Shown piece by piece: positions 35,428-43,200 of a DNA stretch of 50,826 bases (positions within the stretch are counted from its first letter, which is position 1; each line of letters begins with the position of its first letter). This DNA comes from a virus (Duplodnaviria > Heunggongvirae > Uroviricota > Caudoviricetes), in the IMG/VR virus record IMGVR_UViG_3300028025_001180; one strand, written 5' to 3'. Position numbers and translations under genes: made by a program. Under the pieces are notes generated by a model, which had not been told where the DNA came from, did no database searches, and saw nothing but the letters and a program-made list of their open reading frames with translations.

Positions 35428-36156
35428 TTATCCTATTTGTGTTACTGTTAAAATTGTTGATGGTATATCTGGATGAACAGGAGCAACTCCTACAGGTTCG
35501 TATGCAAGTGTTACAGCATTATCCACGTTACTATCTATGTGCCAAGCCAGTTGAAATGTATTTCCTGCACCAGCATCTACTAAGAAGTTCCAAGCAGCTA
35601 CAATATATACAGAGTTACCTGGGAATGATATATAACTAGCAGAAGATGGCACATCTACACCATTTTTTCTTAACCATATTGTTGCTCTTGTAGCACTGTT
35701 ACCAGTTGTACTTACCATTTGAGCACTAAATTGTATATTATATTTTCCAGCATTTGCTACAGTGATTAATGTAGGATTACTAGAACCATCGTTTGTTATA
35801 CTTACACCATTACTCAAATCTGTATTACCAAACTTCATAAACAATACAGTAGCACGTGGTCCAGTTTGATCAGTTACATCATAAAACGAACCATAATAAA
35901 GACTAGATGCTCCACTAACACCAGATGTACCAGAAAACCCTGTTGTACCTGATGTTCCTGCTGCTCCACTTGTGCCTGATGTTCCAAAGGTAGCTCCACT
36001 AGTACCACTAGAGCCTGTAGCTCCTGATGTACCTGATGAACCAGATCCAGAAGAACCACAACCTATTACACAACCTATCCCTTCTATCTGTTTAGAGATT
36101 TCCCACAACAAGTTGTCAGTTGTGCCCCAGCCTATTTGTCTACTTGGTATAGCCAT
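35428..36156 (-). CDS. A-family protein: MAIPSRQIGW domain, collagen-like G-X-X linker, C1q/BclA-like head (putative virion spike)
   Basis: (GTS/GAT/GSS)n run, then YYGSFYD...ITV.NAG.YNIQFSAQ...IWLRKNG.DV...AWNF. Confidence 0.75.
   Translation of the reverse strand: MAIPSRQIGWGTTDNLLWEISKQIEGIGCVIGCGSSGSGSSGTSGATGSSGTSGATFGTSGTSGAAGTSGTTGFSGTSGVSGASSLYYGSFYDVTDQTGPRATVLFMKFGNTDLSNGVSITNDGSSNPTLITVANAGKYNIQFSAQMVSTTGNSATRATIWLRKNGVDVPSSASYISFPGNSVYIVAAWNFLVDAGAGNTFQLAWHIDSNVDNAVTLAYEPVGVAPVHPDIPSTILTVTQIG
35902..36057 (-). repeat. Gly-X-X (GTS-type) low-complexity repeat
   Basis: GSSGTSGATGSSGTSGATFGTSGTSGAAGTSGTTGFSGTSGVSGASS. Confidence 0.8.
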
Positions 36157-36249: not shown

Positions 36250-37458
36250 TTATAAATTTACCTTGCTTCCCACCACTGCAAAGAACAACATTGGTATGCT
36301 AGGATTTGTGCTAACACTAGTCTTTAGTCCTGTGTTAAACTTGAATCTTTTTGTAATTGAGTAGTCCATATTGAAGCCTGTAAGGAACATCATATCTTCA
36401 CTTATTTCAAAGGTGTTGTCCTTTATTCCATATGTTACAGGGCTCCCAGAGATATATAGGTCAGGAGATATGGTCAGTCTTTTGTTTATAGTGAAAGGTT
36501 TTGTGTAAAACACTAACAATGAATGAGTTGTAGTGAACTGTTGTTCTGACTTCTGAATACTCACTGTAGCGTTTATGCCTGTCACTCCCCACTTTCCTAG
36601 TGGATATATTTGTGCATAGGTGAGGAAACCAAATGTGTTTCCAAATGCATGCACCAATGTAGCACCACTATTATCTATTCTATATAGTTTACCTTCATCG
36701 AAGTTCATTTTGGTATAGCGTCCACTAAGAGCAAACTGTTGAAGATTGCTCCATACCATTCCTGTGAGTCCCCAGCTTACATCTCCAGCCATGGATGTCT
36801 GTGATATACCTGATGTAACTATGAGCTGTACTGAGTTATCTAATGTTTGTCCTGCTGTAAGATCAGAGTTAAATAGTATAGGGTTCATTTTAGCTTGACC
36901 TTTTGCTCCCCCTTTACCACCTGACTTACCCCCTCCCCCCTTGCTTTCAGATTTGCTTTCTGATTTAGATTCTCCTGAAGAACTTTCAGAAGAGCTAGAC
37001 TCAGAACTTCCTCCTCCACCTCCACCACCACTGTCTCCTCCTGAGCTTGTAACAGATCCACTAGCACTTGATGCTGCAGCACCTGCAGCTGAGCTAGCAG
37101 CAGAAGAGGCAGCTGAACTTACAGCCCCACTAACAGCACCACTTACAGCTGATGAGACAGCAGTTGCTGTAACAATTGTAGCAGTTTGTGCTGCTTGAGC
37201 CACTGAGCACGCAGAAAACTTTTTATATTCTTCGAAAGCTTGACTGATCCAGGCTTGAAGAGCCCCACTATATACATCACTAGCTGTAAAACTTTTAGAT
37301 TTATTATAAATAACAATAGTGGTAGAACCAGTAATAGGTATACTAAAGACACTTGTAACTTTTGTACAAGGATCTGTCCAAGTTTGTATAATGGTTTGAG
37401 AATACCCATATAATGGTAGTATAACTACTGTTATTAGAATAAATATAAACTGTTTCAT
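36250..37458 (-). CDS. putative outer-membrane beta-barrel protein with N-terminal S/A/G linker
   Basis: SPI signal (..LYGYS|Q), small Cys domain, long S/A/G-rich linker, alternating amphipathic strands to the C-terminal VGSKVNL. Confidence 0.65.
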   Translation of the reverse strand: MKQFIFILITVVILPLYGYSQTIIQTWTDPCTKVTSVFSIPITGSTTIVIYNKSKSFTASDVYSGALQAWISQAFEEYKKFSACSVAQAAQTATIVTATAVSSAVSGAVSGAVSSAASSAASSAAGAAASSASGSVTSSGGDSGGGGGGGSSESSSSESSSGESKSESKSESKGGGGKSGGKGGAKGQAKMNPILFNSDLTAGQTLDNSVQLIVTSGISQTSMAGDVSWGLTGMVWSNLQQFALSGRYTKMNFDEGKLYRIDNSGATLVHAFGNTFGFLTYAQIYPLGKWGVTGINATVSIQKSEQQFTTTHSLLVFYTKPFTINKRLTISPDLYISGSPVTYGIKDNTFEISEDMMFLTGFNMDYSITKRFKFNTGLKTSVSTNPSIPMLFFAVVGSKVNL

Positions 37459-38171
37459 TACTTTGTGAAGATACCTTTCTTCACCATTCTATCCAAGATT
37501 CTAGCACAAGCAATATCTAGAGCCTTCTTTGTAGCAATAGATATAGTTGATTGATTAAATTTTACAGGATCTAGACTTGCGTCTGACAATCCTGAAGTTT
37601 CTTTAGTTGTTTTAGCATCTCCTAATCCAGAGCCAGAGAACACAACACCTGTCTCAGCATCTGTAAACCTCACCTGAAGACCAATGCGTGTCACCATAAG
37701 CTGGCTTGTTGCTAGCTTTGAGCTCACTGTTTCATCTTCAGAGATAGAATAGTCATAGCATTCAATAGTAACAAAGTATTTAGCTAAGTTTATCTTACCA
37801 CGTCCATCTAGTTTGTTCTCAGATATTCCAGCAGCTGATGCTTGGAACTGCTTTACCATTCTGTTCTTAATCTCAGTCTTATCTTCAGTGAACTTAAATC
37901 TATTTAGGTTCTCTAAGTATTCCATAGATATATTAGCCACCCCTAATCCTACACGCTTCTCTTTAAGCTCAGGATACATTTCATACATTTCATCTGATAT
38001 ACCACACTTCAGGATTTGGATAGGAATTTGAGGTCCTTCGTAATCCAGGAAGTCAGAAATGTCAATAGACTTCTCAAAGCTAGCTTTATACTGCTCTGTA
38101 GAAGTCTTTGCCAATTGACTATTTACTGCTCCAGAGAACAGTAAACAGCCTATAAGAATTAAATATTTCAT
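37458..38171 (-). CDS. csgG: CsgG/HfaB-like periplasmic/outer-membrane protein
   Basis: SPI signal (AVNS|Q), G.GVA......L....RF, AKYFV...YDY, GLQVRF.D.ETG.V...G.G, C-terminal helix ATKKALD.A. Confidence 0.65.
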   Translation of the reverse strand: MKYLILIGCLLFSGAVNSQLAKTSTEQYKASFEKSIDISDFLDYEGPQIPIQILKCGISDEMYEMYPELKEKRVGLGVANISMEYLENLNRFKFTEDKTEIKNRMVKQFQASAAGISENKLDGRGKINLAKYFVTIECYDYSISEDETVSSKLATSQLMVTRIGLQVRFTDAETGVVFSGSGLGDAKTTKETSGLSDASLDPVKFNQSTISIATKKALDIACARILDRMVKKGIFTK

Positions 38172-38770
38172 TATTCTTTGATTTTACCACAGTGAATACA
38201 CTCATAGTCTCCATCATGATCTACATCTGCAAACACATGATCACATTGTCTGTGAGCTTTGATTTCATGTTCAAGCTTAAGTTTCTCCATCTCTTGCTCA
38301 TGTTCTTGCTCATCAATCTCAAGAGCTTGTCTGTGCTCTTGTTCATCACGAGCGATCTCATGCTTTTGTTTATTCTCTGTAACAGCTAAGTCTCTAGCTG
38401 CAGCAGCACCTTGGACAAATGCATCAGGGATAGTTGGAGCTACAGGTTTATTGCTCTCTTTCATGTCATTGGTGTGAGACAGTGTAGTACCATCTTCCTC
38501 ATCCATCTTCTGTACAAGCATCTTATCTTTGTCAGTATCACTAAACCAGTAGTCTATAATCTTACCATAGCTACCAATGAAGGCACCTAACATCAATAGT
38601 AATAACTCCTTCCATTCTGCAGCAGCAGAAATGTTATTGTTAAGAGCCATGAATATACCAGCTATAATTAATATAAATGATCCTAATACTAAGGCAGTGA
38701 TATACCACCTACGTAACATCATTGATCCTAAAAGTTCTTTAAAACCTGAAGGCTGTTGAGGCTTGTCCAT
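38171..38770 (-). CDS. two-TM membrane protein with coiled coil and C-terminal CxxC
   Basis: TM pair ending GAFIGSYGKIIDYWF, E/Q/H-rich heptads, CDHVF...CIHCG. Confidence 0.75.
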   Translation of the reverse strand: MDKPQQPSGFKELLGSMMLRRWYITALVLGSFILIIAGIFMALNNNISAAAEWKELLLLMLGAFIGSYGKIIDYWFSDTDKDKMLVQKMDEEDGTTLSHTNDMKESNKPVAPTIPDAFVQGAAAARDLAVTENKQKHEIARDEQEHRQALEIDEQEHEQEMEKLKLEHEIKAHRQCDHVFADVDHDGDYECIHCGKIKE

Positions 38771-38871
38771 ATGTTTGCAATTGTTTCTTGGTTATTTTTT
38801 ACTAGCTCAGCTTTCTTTACACCAGATCTCCTAGATCTTTGAGCTTTTGGTTTGTTTTTCTTCTGTGCCAT
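38728..38871 (-). CDS. small basic protein (not in ORF track)
   Basis: 47 aa MAQKKNKPKAQRSRRSGVKK...; starts 3 nt after the upstream stop and overlaps the next gene. Confidence 0.45.
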   Translation of the reverse strand: MAQKKNKPKAQRSRRSGVKKAELVKNNQETIANIWTSLNSLQVLKNF

Positions 38872-38874
38872 GGC

Positions 38875-39177
38875 TTACCATTTTGGAGCTTCTTCTTTAA
38901 ACTCATCTCCTTCTTTCTTCTTTACAGGAGCAGGTTTAGCTGCAGCTTCTTTTTCTTTAATGATGACAGTCTTACCACCACCTGCAGCTTGTTGTTGAGT
39001 TTGTGAGTTAGTAATGTTAATTACTGGAGCTGCTTGTTGTACAGGAGCAGCTTCATCACCACCTCCTGTTAATTTATTAGTTACAAAGCCACCTACACCT
39101 AGTGTAACTGTGCTTACTAACGTTATGATAATTCCTTTAAAGGATTTACCAGTTGATTCTTCTTGTTCTTCTGCCAT
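38875..39177 (-). CDS. single-pass membrane protein with A/Q/P/K linker
   Basis: TM IIITLVSTVTLGVGGFV, low-complexity tail ending PKW. Confidence 0.8.
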   Translation of the reverse strand: MAEEQEESTGKSFKGIIITLVSTVTLGVGGFVTNKLTGGGDEAAPVQQAAPVINITNSQTQQQAAGGGKTVIIKEKEAAAKPAPVKKKEGDEFKEEAPKW

Positions 39178-39182
39178 GTTAA

Positions 39183-39539
39183 TTATTTTTTAATAGTTAT
39201 TTGACGTTTGTATTCTTTACCAAAGATATCAATAAGTGTAACTGTGTAGTCTCCAGAATTAACATCTGAGTAGTCTAACTTCTTGATTACCATATTGTTA
39301 TCAGCTGTAAATCCTGTAGCATATTTAACATCTCCCTTTAGATCAATTAACTGAATAGCATATTTAGCCCCTTCAGTTACACTTAATGTAAGTGTTATTG
39401 GTCCCTTTGTTATCACTGGTTCCACTCTCTCAATAGCTGTGGAGGTAGCTATCTTACCCAAGCTAATCTCAGGTGTTGGTTGCACTTTTGTACAACTTGA
39501 TATTATAAAAACGATACAGCAGATTATTATATTTCTCAT
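39183..39539 (-). CDS. lipoprotein consisting mostly of a T9SS C-terminal sorting domain-like fold
   Basis: lipobox IISS-C16; IQLIDLKGDVK...KLDYSDVNSGDYTVTL...KRQITIKK matches the T9SS type A CTD pattern. Confidence 0.65.
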   Translation of the reverse strand: MRNIIICCIVFIISSCTKVQPTPEISLGKIATSTAIERVEPVITKGPITLTLSVTEGAKYAIQLIDLKGDVKYATGFTADNNMVIKKLDYSDVNSGDYTVTLIDIFGKEYKRQITIKK

Positions 39540-39540
39540 A

Positions 39541-41238
39541 TTAAAAGTTGTTATATCCTGTTAATTTAATTTGTGTTGTGTTCAAGTTGATTCCTAATTG
39601 GTTACCAGACATATCTGAAGCATCCATGTTAGAAGTTACTTTGATATATGAGTTGATGTTTAATCCATTTTGTAATGTAGAAAACAAAACTTTGAATGGT
39701 ATACCTTTTGTGTAAGGAGTTTTTAATTCTTTATCTACAGCTCCAAATTTAATTCTGCCTGGTCCACGTGAAGCAAACACTAACCACACTGGTACATCTG
39801 TTGTAACAGATTCAAACTTCACTTTGGTTGGGTCATATACAAACTCAAACTGTAGTCCTGATAAGTTAGCACCTTTGCCATCTACAGCAACTGGTACAGT
39901 GAATTCATTACTAGTAACAGTGATGTTATTCAAATTCACATCTATAGATGTAATAGGGTTAGGTGTATTCACAGCTGATGATTTTACACTAAATGATTGT
40001 ATTGTTCCATCAGGTTTAACTACCTGTGAGCTATGTGATCTATTAATGTCTCCAGGAATTAAGTACTTAAGGTTTAAATCTTGAGCCACTGTAGATGTCT
40101 TAAATCTAGTTCCATATAAGTTAGCTTCCTTCCAATATGCTGGTGTTAATGTGTCGTATTCACTATCCAATAACATAGGAATATTATACAATGTTTGACC
40201 AGGTGTAGCTTTTACCACTGTATCAACTCCAATCACTTGTGCAAATAAAGCTGTAACATCATTACCATCAAATGCTTTGTTCATTATAATGTCAGAAGCA
40301 ATCCAGCTAGCTCCTGTCTTTATGTTTACATTATTAAACGTACCATCTAAGTTCTGTTTAATAAACTCATTTTGAGCTGCTGTATAATCAGAGATGGTCA
40401 CAGCTTTATTTAAGTAAGAAGGTATACTATCTGTAGGTATTGTAGCAAACACATTATATACAGTGTTAGGAGTTAGTTCAGATCCCAAGAAGAATGTACC
40501 ATTGTTTGCTGGTACCATTTGTGCTTTGACAATACCTGTAGCTGAATCTACAAACATTATTTTAGGAACTATACCATTTATATCTACGTATCCATTTACT
40601 AATGCATTAGAACTAGGTATAGGTGTTATCCAAGAATTGCGAGGCTTAGGCATAAATACTGTAGACAAATTGTTATACTGATTAGTATAAGCTTGTGCAG
40701 CATTAAAGTATACAGAGTCATAAGCAAATCCTGCACTTACATTAACCACTTTAAATCTTAAATATGCAAGATCACCATCTACAAGATTAGCAGTAGAAGC
40801 AGTGTTAATCCATATACGATTAATAGCTTTGTTAGAGGACTGGTTATAATTGTATTGAGCATAGTTGAAATTTGTGAGACCATTTGTAGTTGTGTTGTTT
40901 GGATTCTTTACAAACGTATATCCAGGATAGTACTGGTTTTGGAACGTAGCTGTAGCTCCTTGAGGAAGAGCGGAACCTTGATTACCTGCTTTTGGAAACA
41001 CAATGTCTATAAAACTAATAGCAGTGTATTGGTGTTCAAAGTCTAAGTAGAAAGATCTTGCTGAAGAACCATTATTCTTATAAGCAAGAGCTAACTGCAC
41101 TGTATCTCCTTTTGCAATCACCCCACCACGTATATCAACGTTTTGTTCTGTAGGTGTGAGCCTTAGTTCTGTTATTTGTCCGTAAGAAAATGTTACAATT
41201 ATTTGAAAAATTGTAACAAAAAATAATAGTTTATTCAT
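39541..41238 (-). CDS. secreted cohesin-domain protein with dockerin-like middle segment
   Basis: SPI signal (FSYG|Q); N-terminal cohesin-like KGDTVQL..FYLDFE; AVTISD...IASD...FDGND; C-terminal cohesin VPV.V....LSGLQFEFVYDP.KVKF. Confidence 0.7.
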   Translation of the reverse strand: MNKLLFFVTIFQIIVTFSYGQITELRLTPTEQNVDIRGGVIAKGDTVQLALAYKNNGSSARSFYLDFEHQYTAISFIDIVFPKAGNQGSALPQGATATFQNQYYPGYTFVKNPNNTTTNGLTNFNYAQYNYNQSSNKAINRIWINTASTANLVDGDLAYLRFKVVNVSAGFAYDSVYFNAAQAYTNQYNNLSTVFMPKPRNSWITPIPSSNALVNGYVDINGIVPKIMFVDSATGIVKAQMVPANNGTFFLGSELTPNTVYNVFATIPTDSIPSYLNKAVTISDYTAAQNEFIKQNLDGTFNNVNIKTGASWIASDIIMNKAFDGNDVTALFAQVIGVDTVVKATPGQTLYNIPMLLDSEYDTLTPAYWKEANLYGTRFKTSTVAQDLNLKYLIPGDINRSHSSQVVKPDGTIQSFSVKSSAVNTPNPITSIDVNLNNITVTSNEFTVPVAVDGKGANLSGLQFEFVYDPTKVKFESVTTDVPVWLVFASRGPGRIKFGAVDKELKTPYTKGIPFKVLFSTLQNGLNINSYIKVTSNMDASDMSGNQLGINLNTTQIKLTGYNNF

Positions 41239-41696
41239 TATAGTAGTTTGTTAATCAATGAGTTACATGCTTTCTTTAAAGCTGTGGATAGATTCTGTTG
41301 GTTAAATTTACCTCCCTCATCTATCAATAAGGTGGACATACTTGTCTCATCTGCAGACTCTTCTATGAGAGCCTTCTTAATCACCTTACCATTTTCATCA
41401 ATGATAGTTCCATATAATCTGATAACTACTGACTCTTTGTTCTTATGCATCACAGAAAAACTAGACTGTGTTTTCAATACGTCTAAGTAGACAATATCAA
41501 TATCTAATCTTTTGTTTGAGTTGTGATCAATGTCATAGTTTTTATCCTGTAGGATTTCTTCTACAATGTTCTTTACACCAAACTCTAGTTTGCGATTGCC
41601 TGCAACAGCACCAATCTTCACCTTATTGGTAACATTACCAATAGCTATAGATGGTGTTTGCCACCACAGTGATAATATTAATAATAGATGTATCAT
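41238..41696 (-). CDS. second CsgG/LptE-like alpha-beta protein
   Basis: N-terminal hydrophobic anchor, FGVKNIVEE.L, C-terminal LSTALKKAC helix parallel to 37458..38171. Confidence 0.55.
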   Translation of the reverse strand: MIHLLLILSLWWQTPSIAIGNVTNKVKIGAVAGNRKLEFGVKNIVEEILQDKNYDIDHNSNKRLDIDIVYLDVLKTQSSFSVMHKNKESVVIRLYGTIIDENGKVIKKALIEESADETSMSTLLIDEGGKFNQQNLSTALKKACNSLINKLL

Positions 41697-41698
41697 TG

Positions 41699-41827
41699 TT
41701 ATCTGCCCTGTCTGTTGTAAGGTTTAGTTGCTTTGTCCTTAGGACCTTTAAACTTTTGTGCTTTACCACCTTTGCGTTTTCCAAATGTGATCTTTTTAGC
41801 ACTTGCTGCTCCTTTTGCTTTTGCCAT
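41699..41827 (-). CDS. highly basic peptide (not in ORF track)
   Basis: 42 aa MAKAKGAASAKKITFGKRKGGKAQKFKGPKDKATKPYNRQGR fills the intergenic gap. Confidence 0.7.
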   Translation of the reverse strand: MAKAKGAASAKKITFGKRKGGKAQKFKGPKDKATKPYNRQGR

Positions 41828-41833
41828 GTTGGT

Positions 41834-42433
41834 TTATGTTAATAGTGAAAAATACTCTTTGAAATGCTTGATACGATCAGCAAGACCAATTGTACCACCA
41901 TTTACTCTCTTAGTAATCATTGTCACAGCAGCATCTGTAGCTCCTGTATCTGCAATCTTATTCAATCCATTCTTACTCCAGAACCAAGCAGCTGATGCTA
42001 ATGCAAACTCTGTAGCTACAAGATCAGGAGTCTCTTCAATTGGTTTGCCTATAGACTTACCAAACGCTGTATAGTTATCACGTCCAGTTAATTGAATGTA
42101 TCCTCTACCTCTAAACTTAAAGCCATCACCACTAGCTTCATTACCATTACCCATTCTACCACCATACACTCTATTAGCAATCTTCTGTGGTTTCTTAGCA
42201 TAGTCTAAAGCAATAGCTTCACTAGGGAAGTATTTCTTGAATATACCCTGCAGACCTTTGGCTGAGTAGTTTAGGTTTTCATTAGTGATTCTAAATCCAC
42301 CAGACTCGTGACCACATTGTGCTAGGAAATGAGACAAGCGTAGGGGTGTATTCACTCCAAACTTATCTTGTATCCCAGGTATTTGTTCAATCACTTTATC
42401 TGGTACGTGACCTTTTAATTTATTTAGATCCAT
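41834..42433 (-). CDS. endolysin, glycoside hydrolase family 19
   Basis: HFLAQCGHESGGF, ENLNYSA, YGGRMGN, FRGRGYIQLTGRDNY, SAAWFW, KRVNGG. Confidence 0.93.
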   Translation of the reverse strand: MDLNKLKGHVPDKVIEQIPGIQDKFGVNTPLRLSHFLAQCGHESGGFRITNENLNYSAKGLQGIFKKYFPSEAIALDYAKKPQKIANRVYGGRMGNGNEASGDGFKFRGRGYIQLTGRDNYTAFGKSIGKPIEETPDLVATEFALASAAWFWSKNGLNKIADTGATDAAVTMITKRVNGGTIGLADRIKHFKEYFSLLT

Positions 42434-42600: not shown

Positions 42601-43200
42601 TTATTTGATTTTCCAATAAGAACTTATGCCATAGTTTAATTGACTACCTATGGTTGAGCCCACGTTGAATCCAACGATTTTATCTTTCTTAGACTTGTAA
42701 AGAATGCCAAGATGAGCACCTGTTACACCTAAGGTTTGGTTACCTTGTACACCACCACCAAAGAACAATGCTGCTTTAGGAGGAGCATAGTTTGTAATAG
42801 TGTTAGTGATAGTTATTGTAGGAATCTTATAGTTAGATCTTACAGAACGTCCTTTGATATTGTTCTGGTTTACAGTGTCTGTAATAGCTACATAACCAAG
42901 AGTGTCCAGTCTAATTGTATCTTTAAACTCTACAAGAGCCATATACTTACTTAACAAATCCTTATACTGAGCTAAAAGCTTAGGGTAGTTTGTGTCAGCA
43001 ATATACTCTGGAGGAGTGGCAACAGTATCATGTAACACTTTGCCTTTCAATGTTTTATAAATAGTTGTGTCATGTACAGACCAACTTGTATCATGTACAG
43101 TCACTGTATCAGACTTTTGATGTCTAGGACTGCAACCATTCTTAGAGAAGGCTACATAAAGCACTAAGACAACTATTATACCAGTTAATAATTTATTCAT
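42601..43200 (-). CDS. membrane-anchored lysis accessory (spanin-like candidate)
   Basis: N-terminal TM with NGC, repeated HDT/.DT motifs, C-terminal amphipathic strands ending YWKIK; lies between holin and endolysin. Confidence 0.5.
   Translation of the reverse strand: MNKLLTGIIVVLVLYVAFSKNGCSPRHQKSDTVTVHDTSWSVHDTTIYKTLKGKVLHDTVATPPEYIADTNYPKLLAQYKDLLSKYMALVEFKDTIRLDTLGYVAITDTVNQNNIKGRSVRSNYKIPTITITNTITNYAPPKAALFFGGGVQGNQTLGVTGAHLGILYKSKKDKIVGFNVGSTIGSQLNYGISSYWKIK

Follow-up and report, generated by a model that had tools for sequence, protein, structure and literature searches.

A cohesin protein and an adjoining lipoprotein as the probable halves of a divided phage-encoded T9SS cargo

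To our knowledge, all described type IX secretion system (T9SS) cargo carries its sorting domain in cis. Phage-encoded T9SS cargo has already been reported, in one report that we found: in the accessible part of the 'Cryophage' study, phage genes with type A sorting domains were described and use of the host T9SS was presumed (Bellas et al., 2020, PMC7468147). As for the sorting domain itself, a C-terminal domain (CTD), the accessible text of Lauber et al. (PMC10994853) states that its conserved motifs set the fold and that only a Lys near the C-terminus contacts PorV. Here we analysed a 50,826-nucleotide stretch of DNA from a virus of the Caudoviricetes (IMG/VR record IMGVR_UViG_3300028025_001180; the window). 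On its minus strand, the gene of a 565-residue cohesin protein, p565, is followed by that of a 118-residue lipoprotein, p118, with a CTD-like domain. No report of a detached, stand-alone or lipidated CTD, or of this gene cassette, was found in the open-access literature. We propose, with a probability of about 0.6, that a phage-encoded T9SS cargo exists here as two stably separate halves, p565 and p118, parted at the linker between cohesin and CTD, and that the products still act together.

The cohesin gene and the adjoining lipoprotein gene

p565 begins MNKLLFFVTIFQIIVTFSYGQ, and its signal peptide ends ...SYG, with Gln at +1. Gln also follows the predicted cleavage site in p237 and p402, two proteins of the same operon, which fits the 'Q-rule' for signal peptidase I substrates of Bacteroidetes, as given in the accessible part of the source (PMC5837995). 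The AlphaFold2 (AF2) model of p565 (predicted local distance difference test, pLDDT, 81.4) consisted of an N-terminal beta-sandwich (residues ~23-205), an Ig-like domain (214-268), a helical dockerin-like region (269-336), a disordered linker (402-428) and a C-terminal cohesin domain. This cohesin scored 26.9 bits with Pfam PF00963, above the cut-off of 24.1, and was matched by Foldseek at E 5e-10; VIA-align superposed residues 427-563 on the solved cohesin 6kgf_C with Z 15.7 and a root-mean-square deviation (rmsd) of 2.3 over 135 of 147 residues. The protein ends ...KLTGYNNF, followed by TAA, and L559, T560, G561, N563, N564 and F565 were invariant or nearly so in 28 sequences. Since LTGYNNF forms the last cohesin strand, p565 stops at a domain boundary and has no CTD.

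A preliminary description of the locus, made from the DNA letters, had claimed just this absence, as well as the positions and content of the two genes, a 565-residue cohesin protein and an adjoining lipobox gene; the open reading frames (ORFs) and the sequence agree with it. Its domain series (cohesin, Ig-like, dockerin-like, cohesin) fared unevenly. The C-terminal cohesin stood. For the dockerin-like stretch, no Pfam dockerin match (PF00404) was found at E<=1 in residues ~269-336; AF2 predicted helices there, and six of the 16 fused relatives scanned below gave sub-threshold Dockerin_1 matches at about residues 252-303 (16.5-21.7 bits, cut-off 22.9). The sole hint of an N-terminal cohesin was one dyad alignment (3l8q_C, model range 22-561).

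Homologues of p565 resembled it in length: of the best 120 listed, 119 had 538-580 residues and one had 402, and PF18962, the CTD profile, matched none of these 120. Short relatives of the p565 cohesin gave 113 matches, mostly fragments from short contigs, none with PF18962. A tblastn search of 50,697 phage records with p565 gave no match, and the p565 alignment, scanned against 185,579 species genomes, found two loci, both in metagenome-assembled genomes (MAGs) and both of the split form.

p118 consists of a lipobox-bearing signal peptide, a linker of ~17 residues and a beta-sandwich, with no passenger domain. An exhaustive phmmer search returned 55 representatives at E<=0.001, 46 of them with 71-137 residues and nine long. 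The family alignment comprised the window protein and 39 of the 55; the nine long matches and seven short or aberrant ones were omitted. Cys16, Tyr60 and Tyr98 were invariant in this alignment (n=40), small residues (G, A or S) preceded Cys16, and the lipobox Cys was present in all 22 locus copies described below. With this lipobox and invariant Cys, p118 is predicted to be a bacterial lipoprotein, a substrate of signal peptidase II (SPII). Its AF2 model had seven strands (pLDDT 90.5), the last at residues 109-116 of 118. The family also has a G-F-T-A motif of its own (G in 36, F in 28, T in 29 and A in 38 of 40).

Many p118 relatives carry Asp or Glu at +2 to +5 after the lipobox Cys (CQDIE, CTDIE, CRNDED; alignment positions 17-22), which we take to recall the export signal of Bacteroidota surface lipoproteins; the window copy (CTKVQPTPE) has no such stretch. 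The nine long phmmer matches were considered as fused forms of p118 and rejected, as they shared a short repeated G-x-Y motif only and not the whole domain; four were SprB-repeat/CHU_C proteins, one was a polyketide synthase (PKS), one an FctA adhesin and the rest others. Among PDB sequences, the profile of the p118 family matched only the GhpA repeats, weakly and as a sum. All named cluster members carried the annotation 'hypothetical protein'; their contigs measured 115 kb or less.

The arrangement of the two genes was examined in a sample found through p565, comprising 23 IMG/VR loci (L001-L023) and two MAG loci, in which p118 was sought with the hidden Markov model (HMM) of its family. A lipobox-bearing p118 homologue lay directly downstream of the p565 homologue in 22 of the 23 IMG/VR loci, and the contig of the 23rd ended 209 nt past the stop codon. 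With the MAG loci added, p118 followed p565 in 24 of the 24 loci that extend far enough. The spacing was -1 nt in six of these, 1 nt in nine, 4 nt in one, 5 nt in seven and 6 nt in one; all three relative frames occurred, and a complete p118 signal peptide with the invariant Cys was kept down to ~27% identity. The single nucleotide between the two ORFs of the window might suggest one gene broken by a frameshift, decayed to a pseudogene or joined by programmed recoding, and the preliminary description had pointed to a possible sequencing frameshift at 39539-39541. However, all 24 loci have two ORFs with a stop codon between them; the variable spacing and the three frames exclude an assembly error and conserved recoding, and a signal peptide and Cys conserved to such low identity also speak against it. 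A one-gene explanation is thus hardly tenable, and the comparison of loci supports a split that is evolutionarily fixed rather than a sequencing or frameshift artefact.

Fused relatives and the likeness of p118 to sorting domains

The most conserved cassette protein, p237, has a 52%-identical homologue, gp017, in the cultured Flavobacterium phage vB_FspM_immuto_2-6A (NC_055915; immuto below). The immuto genes around it correspond to those of the window. gp014 (363 residues; sandwich, Ig-like domain, dockerin-like region) equals the N-terminal part of p565, and gp015 (243 residues; signal peptide, cohesin, CTD) equals the p565 cohesin plus p118, while gp016, gp017, gp018 and gp019 are the counterparts of p100, p237, p402 and p152. 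In gp015, Cohesin (36.7 bits) and Por_Secre_tail (34.6 bits, residues 166-240 of 243) both scored above their cut-offs. For gp013, which has a signal peptide and a C-type lectin domain, no window counterpart was found.

With gp017 as the query, 117 stretches with relatives were obtained, and the best 80 loci were kept. In these 80, 50 loci encode one protein of 627-646 residues, equal to gp014 plus gp015; 25 have the pair of 363 and 243 residues, as in immuto; and five are cut by contig ends. The CTD was therefore fused to the cohesin in 75 of the 75 loci that hold the whole gene. The undivided protein of ~630 residues runs from a signal peptide through a beta-sandwich, an Ig-like domain, a dockerin-like region and a cohesin to a type A CTD. 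We scanned 16 of the 50 fused proteins, picked for different C-termini. PF18962 scored above its cut-off at the extreme C-terminus in all 16 (28.6-44.7 bits), and a Cohesin match was found in 13, 12 of them at or above the cut-off.

Among the 2270 ORFs of the 80 fused-form loci, no stand-alone p118 was found; the best HMM score was 21.1 bits, versus 100-139 bits in the clade of the window, and the matches were to 11 CTDs of long proteins and, in 10 cases, to signal peptides only. Fused loci without p118 and split loci with it mean that the CTD module is always present exactly once, either fused or on the lipoprotein. The neighbours, homologues of p100, p237, p402 and p152, are alike in all forms.

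From 71 distinct homologues of p237, identical rows having been removed, we built a quick maximum-likelihood tree whose root was not fixed. The split clade occupied one side of a branch with SH-aLRT 100, and the immuto-type two-gene form was a clade (98) nested in the fully fused form. According to this tree, division has occurred in two lineages, each time at a different linker. In the clade of the window, the split form is more likely the derived one, arisen by fission, since a CTD is naturally the C-terminal portion of a cargo protein and since a motif retained by the fused CTDs has been lost from p118.

The fused-form cassettes also have proteins of the gp013 type (immuto gp013 at positions 2788-3786 of L024; homologues in L025-L104). 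They are secreted, with a Lectin_C match of 57.3 bits and a dockerin-like stretch, and they end in ...GYNN, GYAN or GYSN without a CTD of their own. BLAST gave no gp013 homologue among the cassette proteins of the window and the ORFs of L001-L023.

The relation of p118 to CTDs was examined with profiles and structures. PF18962 matched the window protein at E 0.0021 (profile positions 7-69 of 75), and it matched 26 of the 40 family members at E<=0.1, the best at 1.1e-6; at the family level this profile signal is more than chance. With hhalign, the p118 family aligned with 21 CTDs of the cassette with a probability of 94.1% (E 1.3e-7), and the domain alone with 94.9% (E 4.6e-8) over 68 columns, whereas four other p565 domains, used as controls, gave probabilities of 0.2-0.7%. 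Among solved structures, the p118 model was superposed on the mirolase CTD (8qb1_A) with Z 10.9 and an rmsd of 1.8 over 77 of 88 residues (20% identity), and on the NucA CTD in the translocon (8glk_D) with Z 10.3 over 75 of 75 residues (19% identity). These two had the highest identities in the structural list, 19-20%. At position 111, where the last strand of p118 starts, 34 family members have K and five have R (39 of 40 basic), and in 21 of the 21 cassette CTDs the last strand starts with a basic residue. The profile-profile comparison shows p118 to be homologous, by these alignments, to a type A CTD.

What the divided protein may do

These comparisons show two real genes in the clade of the window, a p118 related by profile to CTDs, and a complementary distribution of fused and split forms in one conserved envelope cassette. 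They support the view of the preliminary description that the locus is a 'split T9SS cargo', for the CTD is fused in homologous cassettes, the fused versions that it had suggested looking for were found, and the two genes are always separate in the clade of the window. Its premise that a CTD is the normal ending of such cohesin proteins held for the cassette surveyed here, in every locus with the whole gene. Its interpretation as a whole is partly supported; a CTD acting in trans and a decoy that jams the T9SS, both of which it offered, are proposals read from the genes.

The two products would be expected to act together because they form one polypeptide elsewhere (the fusion or 'Rosetta stone' argument). 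In the model that we consider most likely, p118 would be produced as a separate protein with a lipoprotein signal peptide of its own, its gene being co-transcribed and translationally coupled. It would serve as a lipid-anchored outer-membrane partner that keeps the docking role of the CTD for p565, with the lipid anchor in place of the covalent link. The docking site could be the SprA-PorV translocon of the host, or the cassette's own outer-membrane and envelope proteins (p237, p402). A bolder version is tentative, and we regard it as possible but doubtful: the detached CTD would work as such, p118 docking in SprA-PorV and either carrying non-covalently bound p565 to the surface or holding the translocon shut, so that the phage would re-wire or disable secretion and gliding of its Bacteroidota host.

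Several observations weigh against the proposal of a divided cargo. The window copy of p118 scored below both curated cut-offs (PF18962, 18.8 bits versus 27; TIGR04183, 13.5 versus 23). By fold, macroglobulin-type domains matched p118 as well as or better than CTDs (Z up to 11.8); a Foldseek search of the PDB with the p118 model had macroglobulin at the top (E 1.3e-4) and no CTD in its first rows, CTDs appearing only on re-alignment. As unrelated macroglobulin domains score this high, the fold alone does not decide. What the preliminary description had called CTD-like stood for the family profile and the match to solved CTDs and fell short of the curated HMM cut-offs for the window copy. The p118 family lacks the Pro-x-Pro motif (P15, P17) that all 21 cassette CTDs carry, having no conserved Pro at the aligned positions 41-47, and the global hhalign alignment sets the two conserved lysines 2-3 columns apart. 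The longest branch of the p237 tree has simply the split clade on one side, which bears on the direction of change. Host labels come from two MAG bins only, Flavobacterium and Sediminibacterium. No T9SS cargo with a lipobox was found in the open-access literature, so that a lipidated CTD would be without precedent. Binding of p118 to p565, and contact of either with the T9SS, are what we infer from the genes; a complex prediction for p565 425-565 and p118 17-118, run with alignments, gave 0.08, 0.40 and 0.14 against a mark of 0.32, which speaks neither for nor against binding.

Some of the same features could be read differently. p118 might be a plug or decoy that acts independently of p565: a lipid-tethered CTD that enters SprA-PorV and cannot be released would block secretion and gliding and so remove T9SS-dependent phage receptors, giving superinfection exclusion. 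The retained CTD fold and near-C-terminal basic residue would suit such a role, and an export tag alone would have no evident need of the invariant lipid anchor. Substrates are also reported to stall in the translocon when transport is blocked (accessible text of PMC10994853), and resistance of Flavobacterium to phages is reported to map to gliding and T9SS genes (10.1101/2020.10.02.323337 and PMC9804748, in their accessible parts). Yet p118 would seem to act on behalf of the cohesin protein, given the strictly complementary fused/split distribution and the unbroken adjacency; the sister cassettes appear to employ the T9SS as an export route rather than to obstruct it, and a plug explains less well why p118 is never found apart from p565 or beside a fused CTD. 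The distribution thus favours a function with p565 over a pure decoy, both being conjectural, and we consider the plug unlikely.

We consider it very unlikely that p118 is a generic Ig-like lipoprotein, with a convergent or trivial likeness to CTDs and a functionally meaningless pairing with p565. Such an origin would agree with the sub-threshold HMM scores, with macroglobulin and S-layer domains as the top structural matches, and with the phmmer matches to giant SprB-repeat proteins, which stem from the short shared G-x-Y motif. It does not account for a profile-profile match as specific as that seen (94-95% versus less than 1% for the four other domains), for the PF18962 matches in most family members, or for a sandwich that sits where fused homologues have their CTD and is absent where the CTD is fused. 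Remoter still is a role as a lysis accessory, in which p118, at the outer membrane, and p100, anchored in the inner membrane and spanning the periplasm, would form a spanin-like pair. The p118 gene is followed 5 nt later by that of the N-terminally anchored p100, near endolysin and holin-like genes, and in L021 and L022 the endolysin gene comes directly after p118. However, the pair is confined to the split clade: in the 75 loci with the fused form, p100 comes after the cohesin gene that bears the CTD, and no separate lipoprotein is present. The outer-membrane half would thus be missing from those phages, and the idea fails on this point. A separate 199-residue lipoprotein (42601-43200) is already present in the lysis block of the window. 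Moreover, o-spanins are short and proline-rich, and the folded 90-residue sandwich of p118 is unlike them.

The cassette, its surroundings and known systems

The positions of the two genes and of the other cassette features are given in Table 1.

Table 1. Features of the cohesin/lipoprotein locus and of the adjoining genes in the window
Feature	Positions	Strand	Evidence or remarks
p402	36250..37458	-	Signal peptide, 2-Cys N-terminal domain, Ser/Gly-rich linker, C-terminal domain; homologous to immuto gp018
p237, most conserved cassette protein	37458..38171	-	Signal peptide, Gln +1; immuto gp017
p100, N-terminally anchored membrane protein	38875..39177	-	22/23 loci; immuto gp016, E 2e-5
p118, 118-residue ORF	39183..39539	-	Opens with ATG; begins MRNIIICCIVFIISSC, followed by TKV
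Predicted CTD-derived 7-strand beta-sandwich of p118, residues 34-118	39186..39440	-	AF2, solved CTDs, hhalign
Predicted lipoprotein signal peptide of p118, lipobox ISSC (Cys16)	39492..39539	-	Cys16 conserved
Junction: p565 TAA stop and single spacer base before p118 ATG	39540..39543	-	Sequence
p565, secreted multidomain cohesin protein, 565 residues	39541..41238	-	ORF; Pfam; AF2
C-terminal cohesin domain of p565, residues 427-565	39544..39960	-	VIA-align to solved cohesins
p152, small exported protein	41238..41696	-	23/23 loci; immuto gp019, E 4e-7
Endolysin (GH19-like)	41834..42433	-	phrog_181, E 9e-75; adjoins cassette upstream

An envelope cassette of this kind (window 36250-41696, minus strand; L024 2788-8670) is common to unrelated large phages. 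It comprises p152, one or more cohesin proteins, p100, sometimes p199tm, the CsgG-like p237 and the porin-like p402, often with holin-like or endolysin genes between them. The stop codon of p152 overlaps the start of p565, and p152 gave a weak PF03923 match (22.3 bits, cut-off 25). p100 always lies 3' of the CTD-bearing gene, and in loci of types A and B this is the fused CTD gene. p100 and its homologues have a Pro/Ala/Lys-rich stretch before a conserved ...E-(S/P)-W or ...PKW end, a layout that presumably recalls a TonB- or TolA-like tether spanning the periplasm. Language-model features gave leads for two further members: p237 may be CsgG/HfaB/LpoB-like (scores 0.93-0.94), and the C-terminal domain of p402 may resemble an outer-membrane beta-barrel (matches to porin-like clusters, 0.91-0.95). 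Searches of PDB sequences gave no match for the p237 profile and low-complexity matches only for that of p402. The membrane protein p199tm (38171-38770, minus strand) combines a coiled region rich in Glu and His with a cysteine cluster, C-x(15)-C-x2-C, at its C-terminal end; it was found by BLAST in only part of the related loci.

The plus strand of the window encodes a DNA polymerase, a helicase, a primase, rIIA and rIIB, a UvsX-like recombinase and a ribonucleotide reductase, and the window is part of a large phage genome; relatives of the genes in the p565/p118 region sit on contigs of at most 162 kb. A minus-strand block at ~30.9-44.4 kb includes the GH19-type endolysin. Besides the loci L021 and L022 with their endolysin directly after p118, a holin-like p80 gene lies inside the cassette in L095 and L100-L102, so that lysis genes are interleaved with the cassette in these relatives. 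The 199-residue lipobox-type protein mentioned above (...FSKNGC, minus strand) lies inside the holin/endolysin block and may be an outer-membrane lysis component. Between the endolysin gene and p152 there is an extremely basic ORF of 42 residues (MAKAKGAASAKK..., 41699-41827, minus strand), kept in 22 of the 23 related loci. Directly after the envelope cassette comes a collagen-repeat protein (35428-36156, minus strand) with matches to tail-fibre PHROGs (phrog_5073, E 1.6e-6).

The survey brings out a widespread phage cassette, in more than 100 loci, in which putatively T9SS-targeted cohesin/dockerin-like proteins stand with CsgG-like and porin-like proteins beside lysis genes. It also provides natural fused and split versions of one phage protein from at least two phage groups, one fused-type relative being a cultured Flavobacterium phage. 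These could serve as a natural experiment on the ability of a CTD to work in trans and on the effect of a lipid anchor on it, which would be relevant to research on the T9SS and on phages of Bacteroidota.

Compared with known systems, the locus differs from the cargo described for Cryophage, which is of the ordinary fused kind (glycoside hydrolases and a PA14 protein); no cohesin cassette or detached lipidated CTD is described in the accessible part of that report (PMC7468147). Immuto and the uncultured phages with single proteins of 627-646 residues are closer, since they share with the window the same cassette, the same domain series and the adjacent homologues of p100, p237, p402 and p152. 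In immuto, the protein is cut after the dockerin-like region, ahead of the cohesin, and cohesin and CTD stay covalently fused; in the window, the cut comes after the cohesin, ahead of the CTD.

Type A CTDs of the T9SS, such as those of NucA from F. johnsoniae (8glk) and of mirolase from T. forsythia (8qb1), have in common with p118 a C-terminal seven-strand sandwich, a G-x-Y motif and, apparently, a basic residue in the last strand. p118 is unlike them in having no passenger, an SPII rather than a signal peptidase I (SPI) signal peptide, no Pro-x-Pro motif and its own G-F-T-A motif. PorU and PorZ are surface components of the T9SS whose retained CTDs hold them on outer-membrane barrels. There the CTD is a lasting docking module and not a cleaved tag, the role proposed here for p118; unlike p118, however, PorU and PorZ belong to the host, carry large passenger domains and have no lipid anchor. 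The exclusion lipoproteins of the phage T5 Llp type are small phage-encoded outer-membrane lipoproteins. They are not paired with a cargo gene, unlike p118, and are likened to it by description only, p118 being, by prediction, a small phage outer-membrane lipoprotein that could block a surface machine of the host.

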